From the NCBI GenBank assembly GCA_036679645.1, contig JAZDCY010000012.1, forward strand, positions 97,206 to 161,205: DNA of 64,000 nt, read 5' to 3'. Each line of letters starts with the position of its first letter. Positions within the stretch are counted from its first letter, which is position 1. This document shows, piece by piece, positions 11,657 to 19,936 of the stretch. This stretch comes from Gemmatimonadota bacterium. GTDB lineage: Bacteria; Gemmatimonadota; Gemmatimonadetes; Gemmatimonadales; GWC2-71-9. A program made the translations under genes and the position numbers. The notes below the pieces were generated by a model. The model was not told the DNA's origin, searched no databases, and saw only the letters and a list, made by a program, of their open reading frames with translations.

Positions 11657-12114
11657 CGCGGCGCGGGCTCGTCATTCTCCTCGCGGCCGGGACGGTCGCG
11701 TGCGTCTCCTCGCGACAGCGGCCATTGAGGCCTGCGGCCGAAGAGGTGGTCGACGCCTCGGTGCGGCTGGCCTGGACGGCCGCGTTGCAGGCGGTCACCG
11801 ATCAGGGACTCCCGCTTCGGCTGAGTGATCCCGAGACGCGGACCATCGAGACGGACCTGGTCGACATCGCCGAGTACCGACCGGAAGCCACGCAGTATCC
11901 CTACGCCGAGCGGCTGGTACGATTTCGCGTCCTCGTCATCGTCGATCCCGAGAGTGATGGCGCGCGCGTCCTGTTCTTCGCGATGTACAGCCCCTTTCAG
12001 ACGGGGCTCTCAAACACCCGGCGGAACGAGCGGGAGATTCCTCGCGATCACCCCGCCATGCGCCTGATTCGGGAGATGGCGTCCAAGGTGCGAAAGACCA
12101 TAGAAGGAGAATGA
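11653..12114 (+). CDS. Hypothetical lipoprotein
   Basis: GTGA overlap; signal MTRRGLVILLAAGTVAC; RTIETDLVD segment resembles the upstream gene. Confidence 0.65.
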   Translation: MTRRGLVILLAAGTVACVSSRQRPLRPAAEEVVDASVRLAWTAALQAVTDQGLPLRLSDPETRTIETDLVDIAEYRPEATQYPYAERLVRFRVLVIVDPESDGARVLFFAMYSPFQTGLSNTRRNEREIPRDHPAMRLIREMASKVRKTIEGE

Positions 12115-13130
12115 CCGCCGGCCCCGGCCCGGATCGCGCATTCTGCGCCGAGATGTTGCCAAAGGTGTCCAGGACCTTCGCGCTCGCCATCCGCCTCCTC
12201 CCGCCCGACCTGCGCCATGCCGTGCGGACCGCATACCTCATGTGCCGGGTGGCTGACACCATTGAAGATGCGCTACAGATCGCGCCCGGCACAAAAGAGG
12301 GGCTGCTCCGAGAATTCAGCGCCTGCCTCGAGCCGGGAGGACCCGACGCGTCGGCGCTGCGGGAGGCCTTTGCCCACCCTCGTACCGACGAGGAGGAACT
12401 TGCCTTCGAGGCTGATCGTGTCCTGAGCGAGTTCCGTGCACTCTCGAACCCGGAACAAGCGGCGATACGCCCGTGGGTCCAGGAGATGGCAGCGGGCATG
12501 GGAGAATTCGCAACCCGGCACGCGGATGACGGGACGCTGCATACGCTCGAGAGCGTCGCGGAACTGGATCGCTACTGCTACTACGTCGCGGGGACCGTGG
12601 GCCACCTGCTCACCGAGCTGTTCAGGCACCACGAGACCGGTATCACCAAAGACCGGCATCGGCAACTGGACAGCCTAGCCACGAGTTTTGGCCTGGGGCT
12701 GCAACTCACGAACATCATCAAGGACGTGGCCGACGATCGGCACCGGGGATGGAGCTTTGTGCCCGGCGACCTCTGCGCGGTCGCCGGTGTGCGGCCGGAG
12801 GACCTGCAGCTGCCCGCCCACACCGATCAAGCCCGCGACGTGATGCGTGCGCTCATCGACAAGGCAAGGCGACATCTCGACGATGCGCTCGAGTACTGTG
12901 TGACGCTGCCGGGAGGAGCGTACCGCGTGCGCATCTTCTGCCTCACATCGCTCTACTTTGCCGTGCGGACCCTGCGTCGCGCCGAGCGCGACCCACGACT
13001 GCTAGACCCCGACCACAAGGTCAAGATCTCGCGTTCGGATGTCTACCGCACGGTGGTCACGACCTATCTGGTCGCGCCGTTCGACGCCCTGGTGCGCCGG
13101 TACTACCGTATACTCGCCGCGACGGGGTAG
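12111..13130 (+). CDS. Squalene/phytoene synthase family, squalene-synthase-like
   Basis: LPKVSRTFAL, DTIED, YCYYVAGTVG, GLGLQLTNIIKD. Confidence 0.88.
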   Translation: MTAGPGPDRAFCAEMLPKVSRTFALAIRLLPPDLRHAVRTAYLMCRVADTIEDALQIAPGTKEGLLREFSACLEPGGPDASALREAFAHPRTDEEELAFEADRVLSEFRALSNPEQAAIRPWVQEMAAGMGEFATRHADDGTLHTLESVAELDRYCYYVAGTVGHLLTELFRHHETGITKDRHRQLDSLATSFGLGLQLTNIIKDVADDRHRGWSFVPGDLCAVAGVRPEDLQLPAHTDQARDVMRALIDKARRHLDDALEYCVTLPGGAYRVRIFCLTSLYFAVRTLRRAERDPRLLDPDHKVKISRSDVYRTVVTTYLVAPFDALVRRYYRILAATG

Positions 13131-13173
13131 CCGCCCGCGCATCCGCAATCGACCAAGCAGTACATTAGTCCGC

Positions 13174-14841
13174 ATGCCAGCCCTCGGTCCGCCACCCCGC
13201 TTCGACGGTCGCTTCTTCACCGACCAGGCGGTACGCAGCGCGTACAGTGAGGGAGCCGGGCCCTACCGGATAGTGCCGGCAGCCGTTGCCATGCCGGAAC
13301 ACCGGGCAGACCTTCGGCGACTGTTGCTGCACGCGGCGGACACCGACACACCGATACACCCCCGGGGTGCCGGTAGTGGGATTCCGGGCGGTAATCTCGG
13401 CACCGGCATCGTCGTCGATCTTGCGCGGTTTGACCGCCCCGCGCGGGTGGCGCTCACGGAGACAGCTAACATGGGCTCTGCGGTGACCTGGGCGACCGTT
13501 ACTCAGGTGGCGTCACACTTCGGATTGCGGCTCCCGCCGGATCCCTCATCGGGCGCATTCTGTACGATTGGTGGAATGGTCGCGACAAACGCCGCGGGTG
13601 CCCGAAGCCTCAGCGTCGGCAGCATCCGCCGCTGGGTCCGCGGCGTCGAATTCGTCACGACAGATGGCGAGGCGGGTTGGCTGACACGCGGGCACGCGGC
13701 CCGCACGCAAAAATACCGCACGCCGACCGACAGACGCACCCTCGTCGAACGCCTAGCCGCGGAGGAACGGTTCGCTCCGGTGGAAGCCGCCGTGCAAGCG
13801 GCGGCGCCGCTCATAGCAGATCGGTTCCCCCGAACCAACAAGAACGCCTCGGGCTACGCACTCGATGAGTTCCTCGCTTCGGGTGATCTCGTCGATCTCA
13901 TTGTGGGGTCCGAGGGCACGCTCGGCATCGTGACCCGTGTAGAGCTCCAGTTGCAACGCTCGCCGGAGTTCGCTGGGACGCTGCTCCTCGGACTGGCATC
14001 CATCGACACGCTCGGCGATGTCGTCACGACGTTACGAGCGAGCGACCCCGCAATGATCGAGCTACTCGACCGGTCATTCCTCGAGTTCGTTCCTCCCAAC
14101 GCACTCCTCGGAACGTGTGACCTCGATGCGGTGCTCCTCGTCGAGTTCGAAAAACGAGATGAGGTGACTCTCACCACCACCCTATCCGCCGCACGCGAGA
14201 GCGTGCGCGACGCATGCCCCCTCAGTCGCAGCGCGACATCGCACGATGAGCGCGAAGCGCTCTGGGCGCTGCGGCACGCAGCGAGCTCTACGCTCGCCGC
14301 ACTTCCTCCAAACCGACGTTCGTTGCAGGTCATCGAGGATGGCTGCGTGCCGCCCGAGGCACTCGATTCGTACCTACGGGGCGTACGTCAACTCGCTGCC
14401 GAGAGCGGAGTTCAGGTCGTAGCATTCGGGCATGCCGGCGACGGACATCTCCACGTCAACGCCCTCGTGGACACCACCGAATCGAACTTTGCCGCGCGAC
14501 TCGAGCAACTGCTCGACGGGGTCACAGCTCTCGTGATCGACTTGGGGGGAACACCGAGCGGAGAGCACGGAGACGGGCTGCTTCGTGCCCATGTGCTTGA
14601 CCGGCTCTACGGGCGCGAAATCACCGACCTGTTTGCCCGTGTCAAACAGTCGTTCGATCCAGCTGGCGTGTTGAATCCGGGTGTCATCGTACCGACGACC
14701 GGAGCCAGTCCACTCGACCGGCTGAAAGTTGGAGACGGTGCCGATGCCATCCCGCACGACGTCGCCGAGAGGCTCCGCCACATGGAACGGACGGGCGGCT
14801 GGGGTACGTCGCCGCTCAGTCTGGTAGACGCGCCGTCATGA
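13174..14841 (+). CDS. FAD-linked oxidase (GlcD/D-lactate dehydrogenase-like)
   Basis: [54 protein letters not shown]. Confidence 0.88.
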
Positions 14842-15632
14842 AACCCTATCTCGATGTGCTACAGCACGTGCTCGAGCACGGTGTAGCAAAAGCAGATCGA
14901 ACGGGCACCGGTACGCTGAGCGTCTTCGGCTATCAGACGCGCTATGACCTCAGCGCGGGATTCCCGCTCGTCACTACGAAGAAGGTCCATCTCAAATCCA
15001 TCATTCACGAGTTGCTGTGGTTTCTGCGCGGTGAGACGAACGTGTCGTCGCTGCGAGAACACGGCGTGCGGATCTGGGACGAATGGGCCGACGACGCTGG
15101 CGAACTCGGCCCGATCTACGGGTACCAGTGGCGTTCGTGGCCATCACCCGACGGCCGCCACATCGACCAGATCGCTGACGTCGTCGATCGAATCCGGACC
15201 GAGCCAGACTCACGTCGTCTCATCGTGTCTGCCTGGAACGTCACGGATATCCCCGCGATGGCGCTTGCCCCGTGCCATACGTTGTTCCAGTTCTACGTTG
15301 CCCAGGGCCGGCTGTCATGTCAGCTCTATCAACGCAGTGCCGACCTGTTTCTGGGTGTCCCGTTCAATATCGCGTCTTACTCGCTCCTGACCATGATGAT
15401 GGCGCACGTCACACATCTCAGGCTCGGCGAGTTCGTCCACACGTTGGGAGACGCGCACATCTACACGAACCACGTTGACCAGGTCCGTCTGCAACTCTCC
15501 CGCGCCCCACGCGATCTGCCCACCATGACGCTGAACCCGGATATCGATTCGGTTCTCGGCTTCGCCTACGGCGACTTCACGATTACGGGGTACGACCCTC
15601 ATCCCCGCATCCCCGCGCCGATCGCCGTGTGA
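14838..15632 (+). CDS. thyA: Thymidylate synthase
   Basis: DRTGTGT, ELLWFL.G, ALAPCH, YQRSAD.FLGVPFN; 264 aa. Confidence 0.97.
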
Positions 15633-16135
15633 CCGTATCCTTGATCGTGGCCGTCGCGGAGAACGGCGTCATAGGTAGGGACGGGCAGCTTCCCTGGGTG
15701 CTGCCGGACGACCTGAGGCACTTCAGACGCGTGACCATGGGACACACGCTCATCATGGGACGCAAGACGTTCGAGTCGATCGGGAGGGCCCTCCCGGGCC
15801 GTCGCTCCATCGTGTTGTCGCGCGATCCGTCGTTTACGGCCGTGGACGTTACTCCCGCAGGCGATCTTCCGACTGCAATCGCCGCCGCCGCAGACGACGA
15901 CGCCTTTGTAATCGGCGGCGCGTCCCTATATCGGGAGGCGCTCTTCGTTGCCGACCAGCTGTACGTCACGCGCGTCCACGCTACCGTAGATGGTGATGTC
16001 CGCTTTCCGCCGGTCGACTGTGCGGTGTGGCACCTCATCGAACACACGGAACACCCCCAGGACGATCAACACGCCCACGCGTTCACGATTGAGCTATACG
16101 TACGCCACAACACCGCGCCTCCCTCGCCGACCTAG
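15629..16135 (+). CDS. folA: Dihydrofolate reductase
   Basis: [27 protein letters not shown]; coupled to thyA. Confidence 0.95.
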
Positions 16136-16196
16136 GAAAACGTAAGCATTCGGCATTTCGTATCGTGTGCGCAACTCGACTCCGCTCGGGAGTGCA

Positions 16197-17282
16197 ATGC
16201 GGCTCGGGCTTGCATTCAACCAAAAACCAACCACCGGTGATCACGACCGGGCCGTTGTTCTTCCAGTAGACCTCACATCCACGCATCCGTCCGACGCCTT
16301 CGTCGAGTGGGATGACCCCATGACGATCGACGCCGTCGTACATGCACTCAGCGCATTCGGCCAGGTCGTTCGGCTGGAAGCGATCGGAGGTTTCCCGGAA
16401 CGGCTGGCGCGGGCCAATGTCGATCTGCTCTTCAACATGGCCGAGGGCGGTCGTGGGCCGAGCCGCGAGTCCCACGTTCCGGCGATCGCGGAGTTCCTAG
16501 GCATACGTTACACGGCATCGGACCCACTCACGTTGGCGTTGGCGCTTCACAAGGGACGTGCCAAGGAAATCTTCCAGTCACGTGGGATCCCAACGGCGCC
16601 CTTTGTGATGGTCACTTCGCCAACAGACGCCGAGCGCCTTCGTGCAGCGTTACACTTTCCGCTCTTCCTCAAGCCCGTGTGGGAGGGTTCCTCGATGGGC
16701 ATCACGGGTGCGAACCGCGTCGATACCCCAGATGAGGCCATCGAACGCGCGCGAGAGATCCTCGCGACCTACCGGCAACCGGTGTTGGCGGAAACCTATC
16801 TGCCGGGCGACGAGTTCACGGTCGCCGTTCTGGGCAATGGGGCGGACGCTCACGCCTTGCCCCTCATCCGCTACCGCTTCGACGCCCTCTCAGCCGACGC
16901 GTTGCCGATCATGGGACACGAGGCAAAATGGGTGTGGGACGATCCAACGGTACCATTGGACTTGCTCGAGTGCCCCGCCCTCGTGTCGAACGACTTACGG
17001 GATCGCATTTTCGGTGTTGCTGTTGCCGCGTACGGCGCGCTCGGGTGTCGCGACTGGGGCCGCGTGGACGTGCGGCTCGACGGAGACGGGACGCCGCACG
17101 TGATCGAGGTCAATCCACTTCCGGGCATCATCCCAGATGCCGCGGAGAACAGTTGCTTCCCGCGTGCCGCGGCGACCGCTGGAATCACGTATGACGAACT
17201 GATCCAGCGCGTCGTGCGCATCGCATGGCGACGCACGGCGGGCGCAGACCTTCCCGCGCACCTGCTGGCGGAAGCGTCGTGA
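16197..17282 (+). CDS. D-Ala-D-Ala ligase-like ATP-grasp protein 1
   Basis: FNMAEG, KPVWEGSSMGI, EFTVAVLG, GRVDVR, EVNPLPG. Confidence 0.85.
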   Translation: MRLGLAFNQKPTTGDHDRAVVLPVDLTSTHPSDAFVEWDDPMTIDAVVHALSAFGQVVRLEAIGGFPERLARANVDLLFNMAEGGRGPSRESHVPAIAEFLGIRYTASDPLTLALALHKGRAKEIFQSRGIPTAPFVMVTSPTDAERLRAALHFPLFLKPVWEGSSMGITGANRVDTPDEAIERAREILATYRQPVLAETYLPGDEFTVAVLGNGADAHALPLIRYRFDALSADALPIMGHEAKWVWDDPTVPLDLLECPALVSNDLRDRIFGVAVAAYGALGCRDWGRVDVRLDGDGTPHVIEVNPLPGIIPDAAENSCFPRAAATAGITYDELIQRVVRIAWRRTAGADLPAHLLAEAS

Positions 17283-18280
17283 AAGCCGCCATCCCATACG
17301 ACGGCCATGCGGACGGCTGGTCGCCCCAAGATGTGCAACAGGTGCTGGACGTCGTCCGCGACGTCGAGAAGAGTCTCTCCGGCATCGGATACGAGACGGT
17401 GCGCGTACCGGTCCGCCCCGGCGTTTGCTGGCTCGAGGACTGTGCGGCGGCGGACATCATCTTCAACCTGTGTGAGGGCCTGGGCGGGGTAAGCCGATTC
17501 GAGAGCCAGATTGCCGGCGCGCTGGAACTCACCGGGGTCCCGGTCACCGGCGCGTCCGCGCGCACGATTGCCCTATGCCATGACAAGCCGCTGGTGAACG
17601 CACTGCTCGCGTCCCATCACCTTCCCGTGCCTCGCTGGACAACGCCAAAGCACGGTTCACTCGACACGTTTCCCCTTCCCGCTCTCGTCAAACCCGCTGC
17701 GGAAGATGCTAGTGTGGGTATCGACCAGCAGTCGGTAGTCACGACGCGCACCGCGCTCGACGCGCGCGTGTTGGCGGTGGCACGCGAGTATGGAGAGGTG
17801 ATTATCCAGCAGTACGTCCACGGTCGGGAGATCGCAGTTGGGTTCCTCGGTGCGGATATCCTGCCGGTTTCGGAGATCGACTTCAGCCAGATGCCCGAAG
17901 GCGCGTGGCCCATCCTTTCATTCGATGCCAAGTGGTTGGCCGACAGTGCGGAGGACCGGGGCAGCCAGCCAGTCTGTCCGGCGGCCCTGTCACCAACTAT
18001 CGCGGATGAACTGACCACCGCCGCACGGCGCGTCTGGAACGCGGTCGGCGGGTCGGGATACGGGCGCGTAGACCTTCGCGTCGATGATGCTGGTAAGCCG
18101 TGGGTGATCGAGGTCAATCCCAATTCGGATATTTCGACCGACGCAGGTCTTGCCCGCATGGCTCGCGCGGCGGGCTACGGCTACGCGGATCTCGTGGGTC
18201 GGATCGTAGAAATCACACGAGATGCCCACGCGGCGGGATGGAGCGGGGCGTTGAGCACGCCGGTCGAGGTATCGCCGTGA
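17279..18280 (+). CDS. D-Ala-D-Ala ligase-like ATP-grasp protein 2
   Basis: FNLCEG, KPAAEDASVGI, GREI, YGRVDLR, EVNPN; GTGA overlap. Confidence 0.85.
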   Translation: MKAAIPYDGHADGWSPQDVQQVLDVVRDVEKSLSGIGYETVRVPVRPGVCWLEDCAAADIIFNLCEGLGGVSRFESQIAGALELTGVPVTGASARTIALCHDKPLVNALLASHHLPVPRWTTPKHGSLDTFPLPALVKPAAEDASVGIDQQSVVTTRTALDARVLAVAREYGEVIIQQYVHGREIAVGFLGADILPVSEIDFSQMPEGAWPILSFDAKWLADSAEDRGSQPVCPAALSPTIADELTTAARRVWNAVGGSGYGRVDLRVDDAGKPWVIEVNPNSDISTDAGLARMARAAGYGYADLVGRIVEITRDAHAAGWSGALSTPVEVSP

Positions 18281-18786
18281 CCGCGACCATCACGCTGCGC
18301 CCGCTCGAGACAGACGATCTGCTCCAAATACCCGCGATGGTGGAGGCAACGGGCGTCTTTCGGCCGGACGAGGTGCTGGTGGCGTTGGAGGTCGCCAGTG
18401 GAGCTGTCGAGGCGCCCCGAGACGATTACTGGTCGATCGCTGCACTCGAGGACGATTCACTTCTCGGGTACGTGACGTTCGGTCATGTGCCCTGCACGCT
18501 CGCAACCTGGGACCTGTACTGGATCGTCGTTGACCCTGCGGCGCACCATCGCGGGATCGGTCGGATGCTGCTGGCACAGTGCGAGCAGACCGTCCGCGCC
18601 GAGGGCGGCCGCCTGCTCGTGGTCGAGACTTCATCGCGCCCCGAGTACGGCACCGCCCGGTCGTTCTACGAGCACTTGGGCTACGAGCGGCGTGCCACGA
18701 TCCCCGAGTACTATGGACCGGGAGATGATCTCGTCGTCTATGCCAACTATCTCCGGCCCTCCAACCAGGGGGCATTCAATGGCTGA
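18277..18786 (+). CDS. GNAT N-acetyltransferase
   Basis: DLYWIVVDP..HHRGIGR, ETSS, ARSFYE.LGY; GTGA overlap. Confidence 0.88.
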   Translation: MTATITLRPLETDDLLQIPAMVEATGVFRPDEVLVALEVASGAVEAPRDDYWSIAALEDDSLLGYVTFGHVPCTLATWDLYWIVVDPAAHHRGIGRMLLAQCEQTVRAEGGRLLVVETSSRPEYGTARSFYEHLGYERRATIPEYYGPGDDLVVYANYLRPSNQGAFNG

Positions 18787-19936
18787 TTGGCGACGGCTCC
18801 TGCGCGAACGCAGCCTCGCATCGCTCGAACAGCTCCTGGACCGGTTTGGGGAAGAGCATTTCGCCGATCTCCACCGTCTCCGGGAGGCGGTGGAGAACTT
18901 CGAATTCAGGATATCCCCCGCGATGGTCGACCTCATCGAGGAACCGGGCGATCCGATCTGGCGCCAATACGTTCCCGATCTCGCGGAACTCGACATCATC
19001 GATGGCGTGCCGGACCCGCTCAACGAAGAGGCCGACAGTCCGGTACCCAACATTACGCACCGTTACCCGGACCGCGCGCTCTTCCTCGTGAGCCCGGTCT
19101 GCGCATCCTACTGCCGCTTCTGCACGCGCCGGCGAAAGGTTGGCGACCCCGAAAAAATCCCGATGTCGCAGTTTGAAAGCGCGTTCGCTTATCTAGCCGA
19201 GCACACCCAGATCCGTGACGTGATCCTCTCGGGCGGCGACCCGCTCATGTTGTCCGACCGGCGACTGGACATGATTCTTGCGCGGTTGCGCACCATCCCT
19301 CACATCCAGATTGTCCGGATCGGCACACGTATTCCTTGTCATCTGCCCGAGCGGATCACGCCGGAGCTCTGCGCAGTCCTTGCCAGACATCACCCCATAT
19401 ACATCAACACACACTTCAACCACCCGGACGAACTCACACCGGCAGCCGTCGCGGGGCTTGCCCGCCTCGCGAACGCGGGTGTGCCACTTGGGTGTCAGAC
19501 AGTACTCCTTCGCGGGGTCAACGACGATGTAGCCGTGATGCGCGAGCTCATGCAGCGCCTGCTCGTAGCGCGCGTCCGGCCCTACTACATATTCATGTGC
19601 GACAACATTGCCGGCGTCGAGCACTTCAAGACAAACGTCGAGAAGGGCCTCGAAATCGTCGAGGGGCTGCGTGGGTGGACCAGCGGTCTTGCGGTGCCGC
19701 ACTTCGTGATCGACGCCCCCGGCGGCGGTGGCAAGATCCCCCTCCTGCCTGAGTACATCGAAGAAATCACCGATGAGCAGGTGGTCATGCGCAACTACCG
19801 CGGGGAACGATTTGTCTGGAAACAGCCTCGTGAGGGAGCGTTCGTGGGAGCGGCTACCGGTACAGACGATTTCTCGCCCATTCCCATTCAGCGGCGAGCC
19901 ACCAAGAGACCTGCGCTCGAGAGACGGGGCGGCTAG
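18779..19936 (+). CDS. kamA: KamA-family radical SAM aminomutase (lysine 2,3-aminomutase-like)
   Basis: THRYPDR, CASYCRFCTR (CxxxCxxC), SGGDPL, HFNHPDE, DAPGGGGK. Confidence 0.9.
   Translation: MADWRRLLRERSLASLEQLLDRFGEEHFADLHRLREAVENFEFRISPAMVDLIEEPGDPIWRQYVPDLAELDIIDGVPDPLNEEADSPVPNITHRYPDRALFLVSPVCASYCRFCTRRRKVGDPEKIPMSQFESAFAYLAEHTQIRDVILSGGDPLMLSDRRLDMILARLRTIPHIQIVRIGTRIPCHLPERITPELCAVLARHHPIYINTHFNHPDELTPAAVAGLARLANAGVPLGCQTVLLRGVNDDVAVMRELMQRLLVARVRPYYIFMCDNIAGVEHFKTNVEKGLEIVEGLRGWTSGLAVPHFVIDAPGGGGKIPLLPEYIEEITDEQVVMRNYRGERFVWKQPREGAFVGAATGTDDFSPIPIQRRATKRPALERRGG

Follow-up and report, generated by a model that had tools for sequence, protein, structure and literature searches.

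A conserved operon joining two Ddl-like ATP-grasp ligases, a GNAT protein and a KamA-family aminomutase in Gemmatimonadota: a probable beta-lysine-using biosynthetic unit

The window considered here, a stretch of 64,000 nucleotides (nt) from a Gemmatimonadota bacterium (GenBank assembly GCA_036679645.1, contig JAZDCY010000012.1, positions 97,206 to 161,205), contains a compact operon for two ATP-grasp ligases, LigA and LigB, an acetyltransferase of the GNAT family and an aminomutase of the KamA family. The four genes, whose overlapping stops and starts had been pointed out in the original prediction made from the letters of the window, are all open reading frames on the plus strand and span positions 16197-19936:

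16197-17282, plus strand: LigA, 361 amino acids, ATG start
17279-18280, plus strand: LigB, 333 amino acids, GTG start
18277-18786, plus strand: GNAT, 169 amino acids, GTG start
18779-19936, plus strand: KamA, 385 amino acids, ATG start

LigA overlaps LigB by 4 nt (GTGA, 17279-82), LigB overlaps GNAT by another 4 nt (GTGA, 18277-80), and the GNAT and KamA genes share 8 nt (18779-86). The host genome is 92.7% complete, and the nearest relatives of the operon belong to the Gemmatimonadales. The conservation of the four genes, the displacement pattern of KamA and the residues of the ligases support the earlier proposal of a conserved, non-Ddl biosynthetic unit that uses beta-lysine, an assignment that is very probably correct.

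The operon is a real conserved unit. Among the 80 best KamA genome loci, which were picked by closeness to the window copy and so measure inheritance, not breadth, 70 hold LigA, LigB, GNAT and KamA in this order, and in the remaining 10 the contig ends within about 1.1 kb upstream of KamA; a chance arrangement is therefore excluded. When metagenome loci are anchored on GNAT, 44 of 80 are long enough for four genes; 42 of these carry all four and two are without KamA. Distant metagenome loci show the same gene order with different flanks, and the order recurs in Ignavibacteria, Bacteroidota and Aminicenantes, with one KamA on record from Ignavibacteria and other distant KamA proteins grouping with those of Bacteroidota and Aminicenantes. 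The neighbourhood survey proposed in the original prediction thus finds the four genes conserved together. Across 251 genomes of the phylum, the host included, LigA is present in 118, GNAT in 119 and both in 117 (the counts include G155, a genome marked unpublished, on which alone no claim rests). Within the host's own family, a large group of soil and sediment Gemmatimonadales, LigA is a near-core trait, occurring in 91 of 113 genomes; several genera gave no LigA match. The only other genome of the same genus (G068, 96% complete) gives no match for LigA, GNAT or the operon KamA, and the window copy lies on a long branch (0.49) of a FastTree tree of LigA and LigB. Neither a description of the operon nor, in keeping with the original prediction, an assigned product was found in the literature searched, with subscription journals and supplements outside its scope. 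A 2009 survey of ATP-grasp neighbourhoods, reportedly by Iyer and colleagues, may mention it.

KamA is a radical-SAM, pyridoxal phosphate (PLP)-containing 2,3-aminomutase of the KamA family with a lysine-type signature (CxxxCxxC at 108-115, R117, D275, D312 and K319). Its TIGR00238 score of 290 bits exceeds the cut-off of 199. The best-scoring subfamily is AblA (TIGR03820), at 437 bits against a cut-off of 525; distant operon orthologs reach 463 and 479, and a control AblA 766. Scores also fall below the cut-offs for EpmB (235 versus 369), glutamate aminomutase (391 versus 650) and arginine aminomutase (326 versus 600). The enzyme aligns with the C. subterminale lysine 2,3-aminomutase 2A5H at an E-value of 2e-110, and C125, C129, C132, R134, H230, D293, D330 and K337, numbered from that alignment, are invariant in the 85 close and the 7 distant orthologs compared. 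D293 and D330 are taken here to be the aspartates that bind the lysine side chain, K337 to be the PLP lysine and R134 a substrate residue. The operon KamA is accordingly best described as a predicted converter of L-lysine into beta-lysine. Beta-glutamate, previously listed as a candidate substrate, is unlikely because both lysine-type aspartates are retained; glutamate 2,3-aminomutase presumably has a basic residue in place of D293. A search for lysine 5,6-aminomutase (PF09043) gave no match in the host genome, and control genomes gave none either. The same genome encodes a second KamA-family protein (G000:C60:14455-15834) whose residues corresponding to D293 and D330 are Arg and Thr, for which reason it likely acts on an acidic amino acid and not on lysine. 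At a separate locus (L086:3397-7951; G012:C13), KamA stands with an M20-like peptidase and a 725-amino-acid protein that has an N-terminal Ddl-like ligase domain.

The pattern in which KamA is displaced bears on what the ligases consume. With operon-type KamA defined as a match of about 60% identity or more, two AblA-type genes (G011, G114) being left out, 101 of the 118 LigA genomes have the operon KamA and 17 are missing it. Sixteen of the 251 genomes carry a Streptomyces-type KamA, which is 27% identical to the operon enzyme and 60% identical to a Streptomyces protein annotated as lysine 2,3-aminomutase; G127 has a further copy, truncated by a contig end. The Streptomyces-type enzyme is found in 16 of the 17 LigA genomes without the operon KamA, versus none of the 101 that have it, and in one of 133 genomes without LigA; in the seventeenth KamA-less genome (G033), the operon is cut by a contig end 115 bp past GNAT. 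All ten KamA-less operons examined keep LigA, LigB and GNAT. In a FastTree tree of 82 LigA plus LigB rows (72 with operon KamA, 10 without), the starred branches force four changes, and three genera contain both states. The replacing enzyme keeps both aspartates, with its PLP lysine one position earlier, and in G143 its gene lies directly behind GNAT. Because the operon KamA is missing where the Streptomyces-type enzyme is present, over four separate changes, free beta-lysine is the likely input of the ligases, and the operon KamA appears to be lost once another beta-lysine source exists. The displacement also argues against an obligate complex of KamA with the ligases.

In four other loci, the neighbours of the replacing KamA include genes for a GntR regulator and for a class III aminotransferase, and most of these loci also have an aldehyde dehydrogenase or CoA-transferase gene nearby. 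These clusters (L183, G043:C3; L185, G025:C18; L190, G031:C314; L193, G170:C47) have one or two class III aminotransferases beside the regulator, together with an aldehyde dehydrogenase and a two-subunit CoA-transferase; L193 additionally has an amino-acid permease. Their gene content suggests lysine breakdown via beta-lysine, 3-aminoadipate semialdehyde, 3-aminoadipate and 3-oxoadipate.

LigA and LigB, which are 31% identical, share with DdlA, DdlB and the Van ligases the three-domain ATP-grasp fold. The model of LigA (predicted local distance difference test, pLDDT, 88.6) has DdlA 8EVV as its best structural match (Z 30.7, root-mean-square deviation 2.6 A over 297 residues), and the Foldseek top match of the LigB model (pLDDT 93.6) is 4C5A, with a template-modelling (TM) score of 0.77. 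In the numbering of an alignment to E. coli DdlB 1IOV, tallied over 82 orthologs, equivalents of K97, K144, K215, R255, D257 and N272 are present in 82 of 82 for both ligases, and that of E270 in 82 of 82 LigA and 80 of 82 LigB orthologs. Because the Ddl-like fold is accompanied by the ATP, metal and oxyanion residues, both enzymes are likely active.

Automatic annotation makes the two proteins D-alanine-D-alanine ligases, and LigA keeps the equivalents of Ser150, Gly276 and Ser281 (S165, G310 and S319) in 82 of 82 orthologs, as would be expected if the pair were extra D-Ala-D-Ala or Van-type D-Ala-D-X ligases with KamA a mere neighbour. This explanation is nevertheless very improbable. LigA matches PF07478 (114 bits), but neither ligase matches PF01820, and both score far under the Ddl and Van cut-offs compared (TIGR01205, 127 bits for LigA and 118 for LigB, cut-off 245.65). 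His63, presumably a D-Ala subsite residue, is Glu in both (Glu66 in LigB), and Tyr216 is Trp in both (Trp219 in LigB). KamA, moreover, is lost only where another KamA is present. A separate, canonical Ddl lies on contig C4 of the host genome and is its only gene with PF01820. The absence of mur/fts genes beside the operon, from which a non-Ddl function had been argued, is real and the conclusion holds, but the argument is weak, as the canonical ddl has no mur/fts neighbours either. Similarly, the motifs EVNPLPG and EVNPNSD, cited as signs of divergence from Ddl, are both present, yet EVNPLPG keeps Glu270, Asn272 and Gly276, and the departures lie elsewhere.

In DdlB, as described in PMC5717164, Glu15 holds the donor amine, and on the acceptor side Ser281 binds the carboxylate and Tyr216 contacts the amine; the oxyanion pocket is made up of Arg255 and the NH of Gly276. 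The corresponding donor region of LigA contains E37, D39, E83 (for His63) and E91, each in 81 of 82 orthologs, an acidic pocket that would suit a diamino-acid donor. At position 167 the window LigA has Met, versus Lys in 81 of 82 orthologs; Met167 is seen in 3 of 120 close homologs. LigB has Ala144 for Ser150 in 81 of 82 orthologs, Asp284 for Gly276 in 82 of 82 and Ala289 for Ser281 in 82 of 82. Among 108 full-length LigB-GNAT fusions, the Asp284 position is Asp in 98 and Cys in 10, and Ala289 is kept in 97. The replacement of Ser281 by Ala, concomitant with Asp at Gly276, suggests that LigB takes an acceptor without a carboxylate, an amine. The simplest reading of the two pockets is that LigA and LigB would catalyse two different reactions.

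The original prediction had also raised a heterodimer. In its strict form, LigA and LigB would be a single obligate heterodimer that makes one amide bond, with one subunit partly structural. In 54 of 61 loci LigA and LigB overlap by 4 nt or 1 nt, and the complex prediction for the pair reaches 0.41, versus 0.02 for the best control, with contact agreement between runs of at least 68% and partner pLDDT of at least 84. Of 157 solved pairs 116 pass the mark used, as do 2 of 215 mismatched ones, and scores of 0.60 or under take in 18 of the 157 solved pairs and both passing mismatches. Ddl is itself a homodimer, however, and this weak pass may reflect likeness to it. The full catalytic set occurs in both ligases alongside different, separately invariant substrate pockets, and most of the apparent LigA-LigB fusions read (9 of 15 long matches) contain out-of-frame stretches and are taken to be frameshift or chimera artefacts. 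A single-bond heterodimer is thus decidedly improbable, whereas one in which both subunits are active would agree with the two-step pathway considered below.

The GNAT protein contains PF00583 and PF13508, and its nearest structure is the close homolog PDB 2R7H (E 3e-31; next match 8e-5), presumably a structural genomics target from Desulfovibrio. The depositors' name for it, 'putative D-alanine N-acetyltransferase of GNAT family', is only putative, and the one mention of 2R7H found in the literature searched is in a paper on a Salmonella tRNA-acetylating toxin. Among the best 120 of 264 long GNAT homologs, 118 are LigB-GNAT fusions, a few of which are fragments or frameshifted records, and none is a LigA-GNAT fusion; the names attached are Longimicrobiales, Phycisphaerae, Kiritimatiellae, Lentisphaeria and Planctomycetaceae. 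The other two join GNAT to a deacetylase domain closest to acetylpolyamine amidohydrolases (6PHR, E 8e-73). These two kinds of fusion make it likely that GNAT works alongside LigB, with an aliphatic amine as its substrate.

The AblA/AblB system (yodP-kamA), which makes N-epsilon-acetyl-beta-lysine, likewise sets a lysine-type KamA beside a GNAT. The operon differs from it in a KamA below the AblA cut-off, in the addition of two ATP-grasp ligases, and in a 169-residue, 2R7H-type GNAT instead of an AblB of about 270 residues. The link to AblB drawn earlier falls away: the GNAT has no TIGR03827 match at an E-value of 1e-5, nor does any protein in the 92.7% complete genome, whereas a true AblA/AblB control passes both cut-offs.

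From these elements a pathway can be proposed in which KamA, by its residues and its displacement, would release free beta-lysine. LigA would then activate an amine-rich acyl donor, likely beta-lysine, and join it to a carboxylate-bearing acceptor, for example a second beta-lysine or another amino acid. LigB would activate a carboxylate and join it to a carboxylate-free acceptor; a diamine or polyamine is the most probable, and Asp284 is positioned such that it could hold a further amine. GNAT, beside LigB, may either mono-acetylate the amine first or cap the product, which would be a cytoplasmic polyamine-like cation or compatible solute. That the operon builds a small, N-acetylated, beta-lysine-containing amide in this manner, by two ligation steps onto a diamine or polyamine accompanied by acetylation, is assigned a probability of about 0.55.

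Several points weigh against this pathway. It is drawn entirely from gene order, conservation, fusions, residue changes and the displacement pattern, and the 251-genome survey covered LigA, GNAT and KamA. The ligase residues were mapped by sequence alignment; LigB also keeps the Leu282 backbone position (Gly290) and usually a nearby Arg293 (73 of 82), and could bind a carboxylate another way, via this arginine. The pointer to polyamines from the GNAT fusions comes from only 2 of 120, and the host's own genome has, as a putative sign of polyamine synthesis, one PF01564 match, inside an 889-residue frame. With regard to KamA, the D293/D330 pair would leave arginine or ornithine as a possible substrate, the split of 16/17 versus 0/101 corresponds to about four events, kin not being independent, and lysine as the putative substrate of the replacing KamA is deduced from its annotation, its signature and the genes around it.

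Some of the same observations could be accommodated by an amino-acid-only oligopeptide, such as N-acetyl-beta-lysyl-beta-lysine or a tripeptide, serving as a compatible solute and extending the AblA/AblB theme. The acceptor of LigB could in that case be the epsilon-amine of beta-lysine, whose carboxylate would lie far from the Ser281 site, and no diamine-making gene is among those recurring in the 80 genome loci. Such a product is judged unlikely, however, as the GNAT is not AblB and its only other fusion partner seen is the acetylpolyamine-amidohydrolase-like domain.

Addition of beta-lysine and an acetyl cap to a macromolecule, whether peptidoglycan, lipid or protein, is a further alternative and quite unlikely. 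Ddl is the closest fold of the ligases, RimK and LysX, ATP-grasp enzymes that modify proteins, are among the structural matches, and the amine of a lipid or of a lysine in a protein could serve as an acceptor without a carboxylate; the depositors' name for 2R7H also counts in favour. Against this, the genome has its canonical Ddl, and the genes that recur in the operon loci (the 80 genome loci and the distant loci) include none for a target, for wall or lipid functions, or for export. Wall modification, given equal standing in the original prediction, loses ground to the separate Ddl and to the missing acceptor-carboxylate site of LigB. The operon resembles EpmA/EpmB, the system for beta-lysylation of EF-P, in having a KamA-family enzyme as the source of the beta-lysine that is ligated to an amine; it differs in the low EpmB score of its KamA and in ligases that are ATP-grasp and not synthetase-like. 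EpmA was not found in the host's own genome, where the best genX match, under the cut-off, is a 500-residue lysyl-tRNA synthetase.

The operon can also be compared with RizA, BacD, DcsG, LysX/ArgX and PylC, enzymes of small-peptide ATP-grasp ligation that form amide bonds without the ribosome and are sometimes paired. Their folds are more distant from those of the operon ligases (Z 17-23), and the operon sits at a stable chromosomal site between housekeeping genes, without a transporter or resistance gene. Its mode of working resembles that of a small-peptide ATP-grasp pathway added to AblA, and it belongs to neither Ddl nor AblA/AblB.

The operon is flanked on its 5' side by thyA-folA and on its 3' side by a convergent EF-G-like gene on the opposite strand. 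A candidate control region precedes LigA:

16161-16191, plus strand: putative own promoter and ribosome binding site of the operon, proposed from the sequence (-10-like hexamer TATCGT at 16161-16166, GGAG at 16188-16191)

Inspection of 13 relatives by eye reveals a TATTG(C/T) -35-like word ahead of the -10-like hexamer in all 13, and the hexamer itself is TATCGT in 7. The -35-like word is absent from the window copy upstream of LigA (16135-16197), and a consensus promoter scan called nothing there. Five of the 13 relatives (L010, L024, L057, L060, L072) have a GC-rich hairpin and T run, a possible attenuator, between promoter and LigA start; it is not in the window copy. An Rfam search gave one match, at chance level. 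The upstream run at 12111-16135 holds genes for a squalene-synthase-like protein and an FAD-linked oxidase, as well as thyA and folA. In most relatives the oxidase gene remains close to the operon, thyX often stands in place of thyA-folA, and the adjacency of the run to the operon is probably inherited synteny. The exchange of thyA-folA for thyX in many loci, together with the promoter-like motif before LigA in relatives, indicates that the four genes form their own unit.

Related ligases also occur in other settings. The host genome encodes a third Ddl-like ligase of the LigB kind (EDASAG, NCAEG, KW; G000:C53, about 85380-87394), and next after it a zinc-ribbon protein that bears the HExxH motif of metallopeptidases, the two making a separate uncharacterised pair. 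In a 660-residue protein (P0019), a LigB-like ligase domain is fused to a class I methyltransferase. The plasmid homologs examined, 3 of 7 for GNAT and 2 of 13 for LigA, lie outside such operons and offer no functional clue. On the Rhizobium plasmid NZ_CP125646.1 (H1, H18), a LigA-like ATP-grasp gene and a KamA-family gene are separated by about 8 kb, a distance that spans the origin of the circular record.

The question of the product is directly testable, since each of the four genes is small and soluble, and the structure of one homolog has been solved. Given the KamA displacement and the pairing of LigB with GNAT, the substrate screen can be narrowed to donors of the beta-lysine kind, with amino-acid acceptors for LigA and diamine acceptors for LigB. 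If the proposal is true, the thousands of proteins annotated as D-alanine-D-alanine ligases include a subfamily with another job; LigA matches at E-values up to 1e-30 number 5,268 among 7,998 scored candidates, true Ddl-like relatives included. More tentatively, an N-acetylated beta-lysyl-polyamine conjugate might constitute a widespread, undescribed class of bacterial polycation, LigB or LigA the first Ddl-type enzyme with a polyamine acceptor, and GNAT with an acetylpolyamine amidohydrolase a charge switch based on reversible acetylation; this extension is possible but rather doubtful. Because the operon is near-core in a large soil and sediment family of Gemmatimonadales, its product may be an abundant, unrecognised metabolite.

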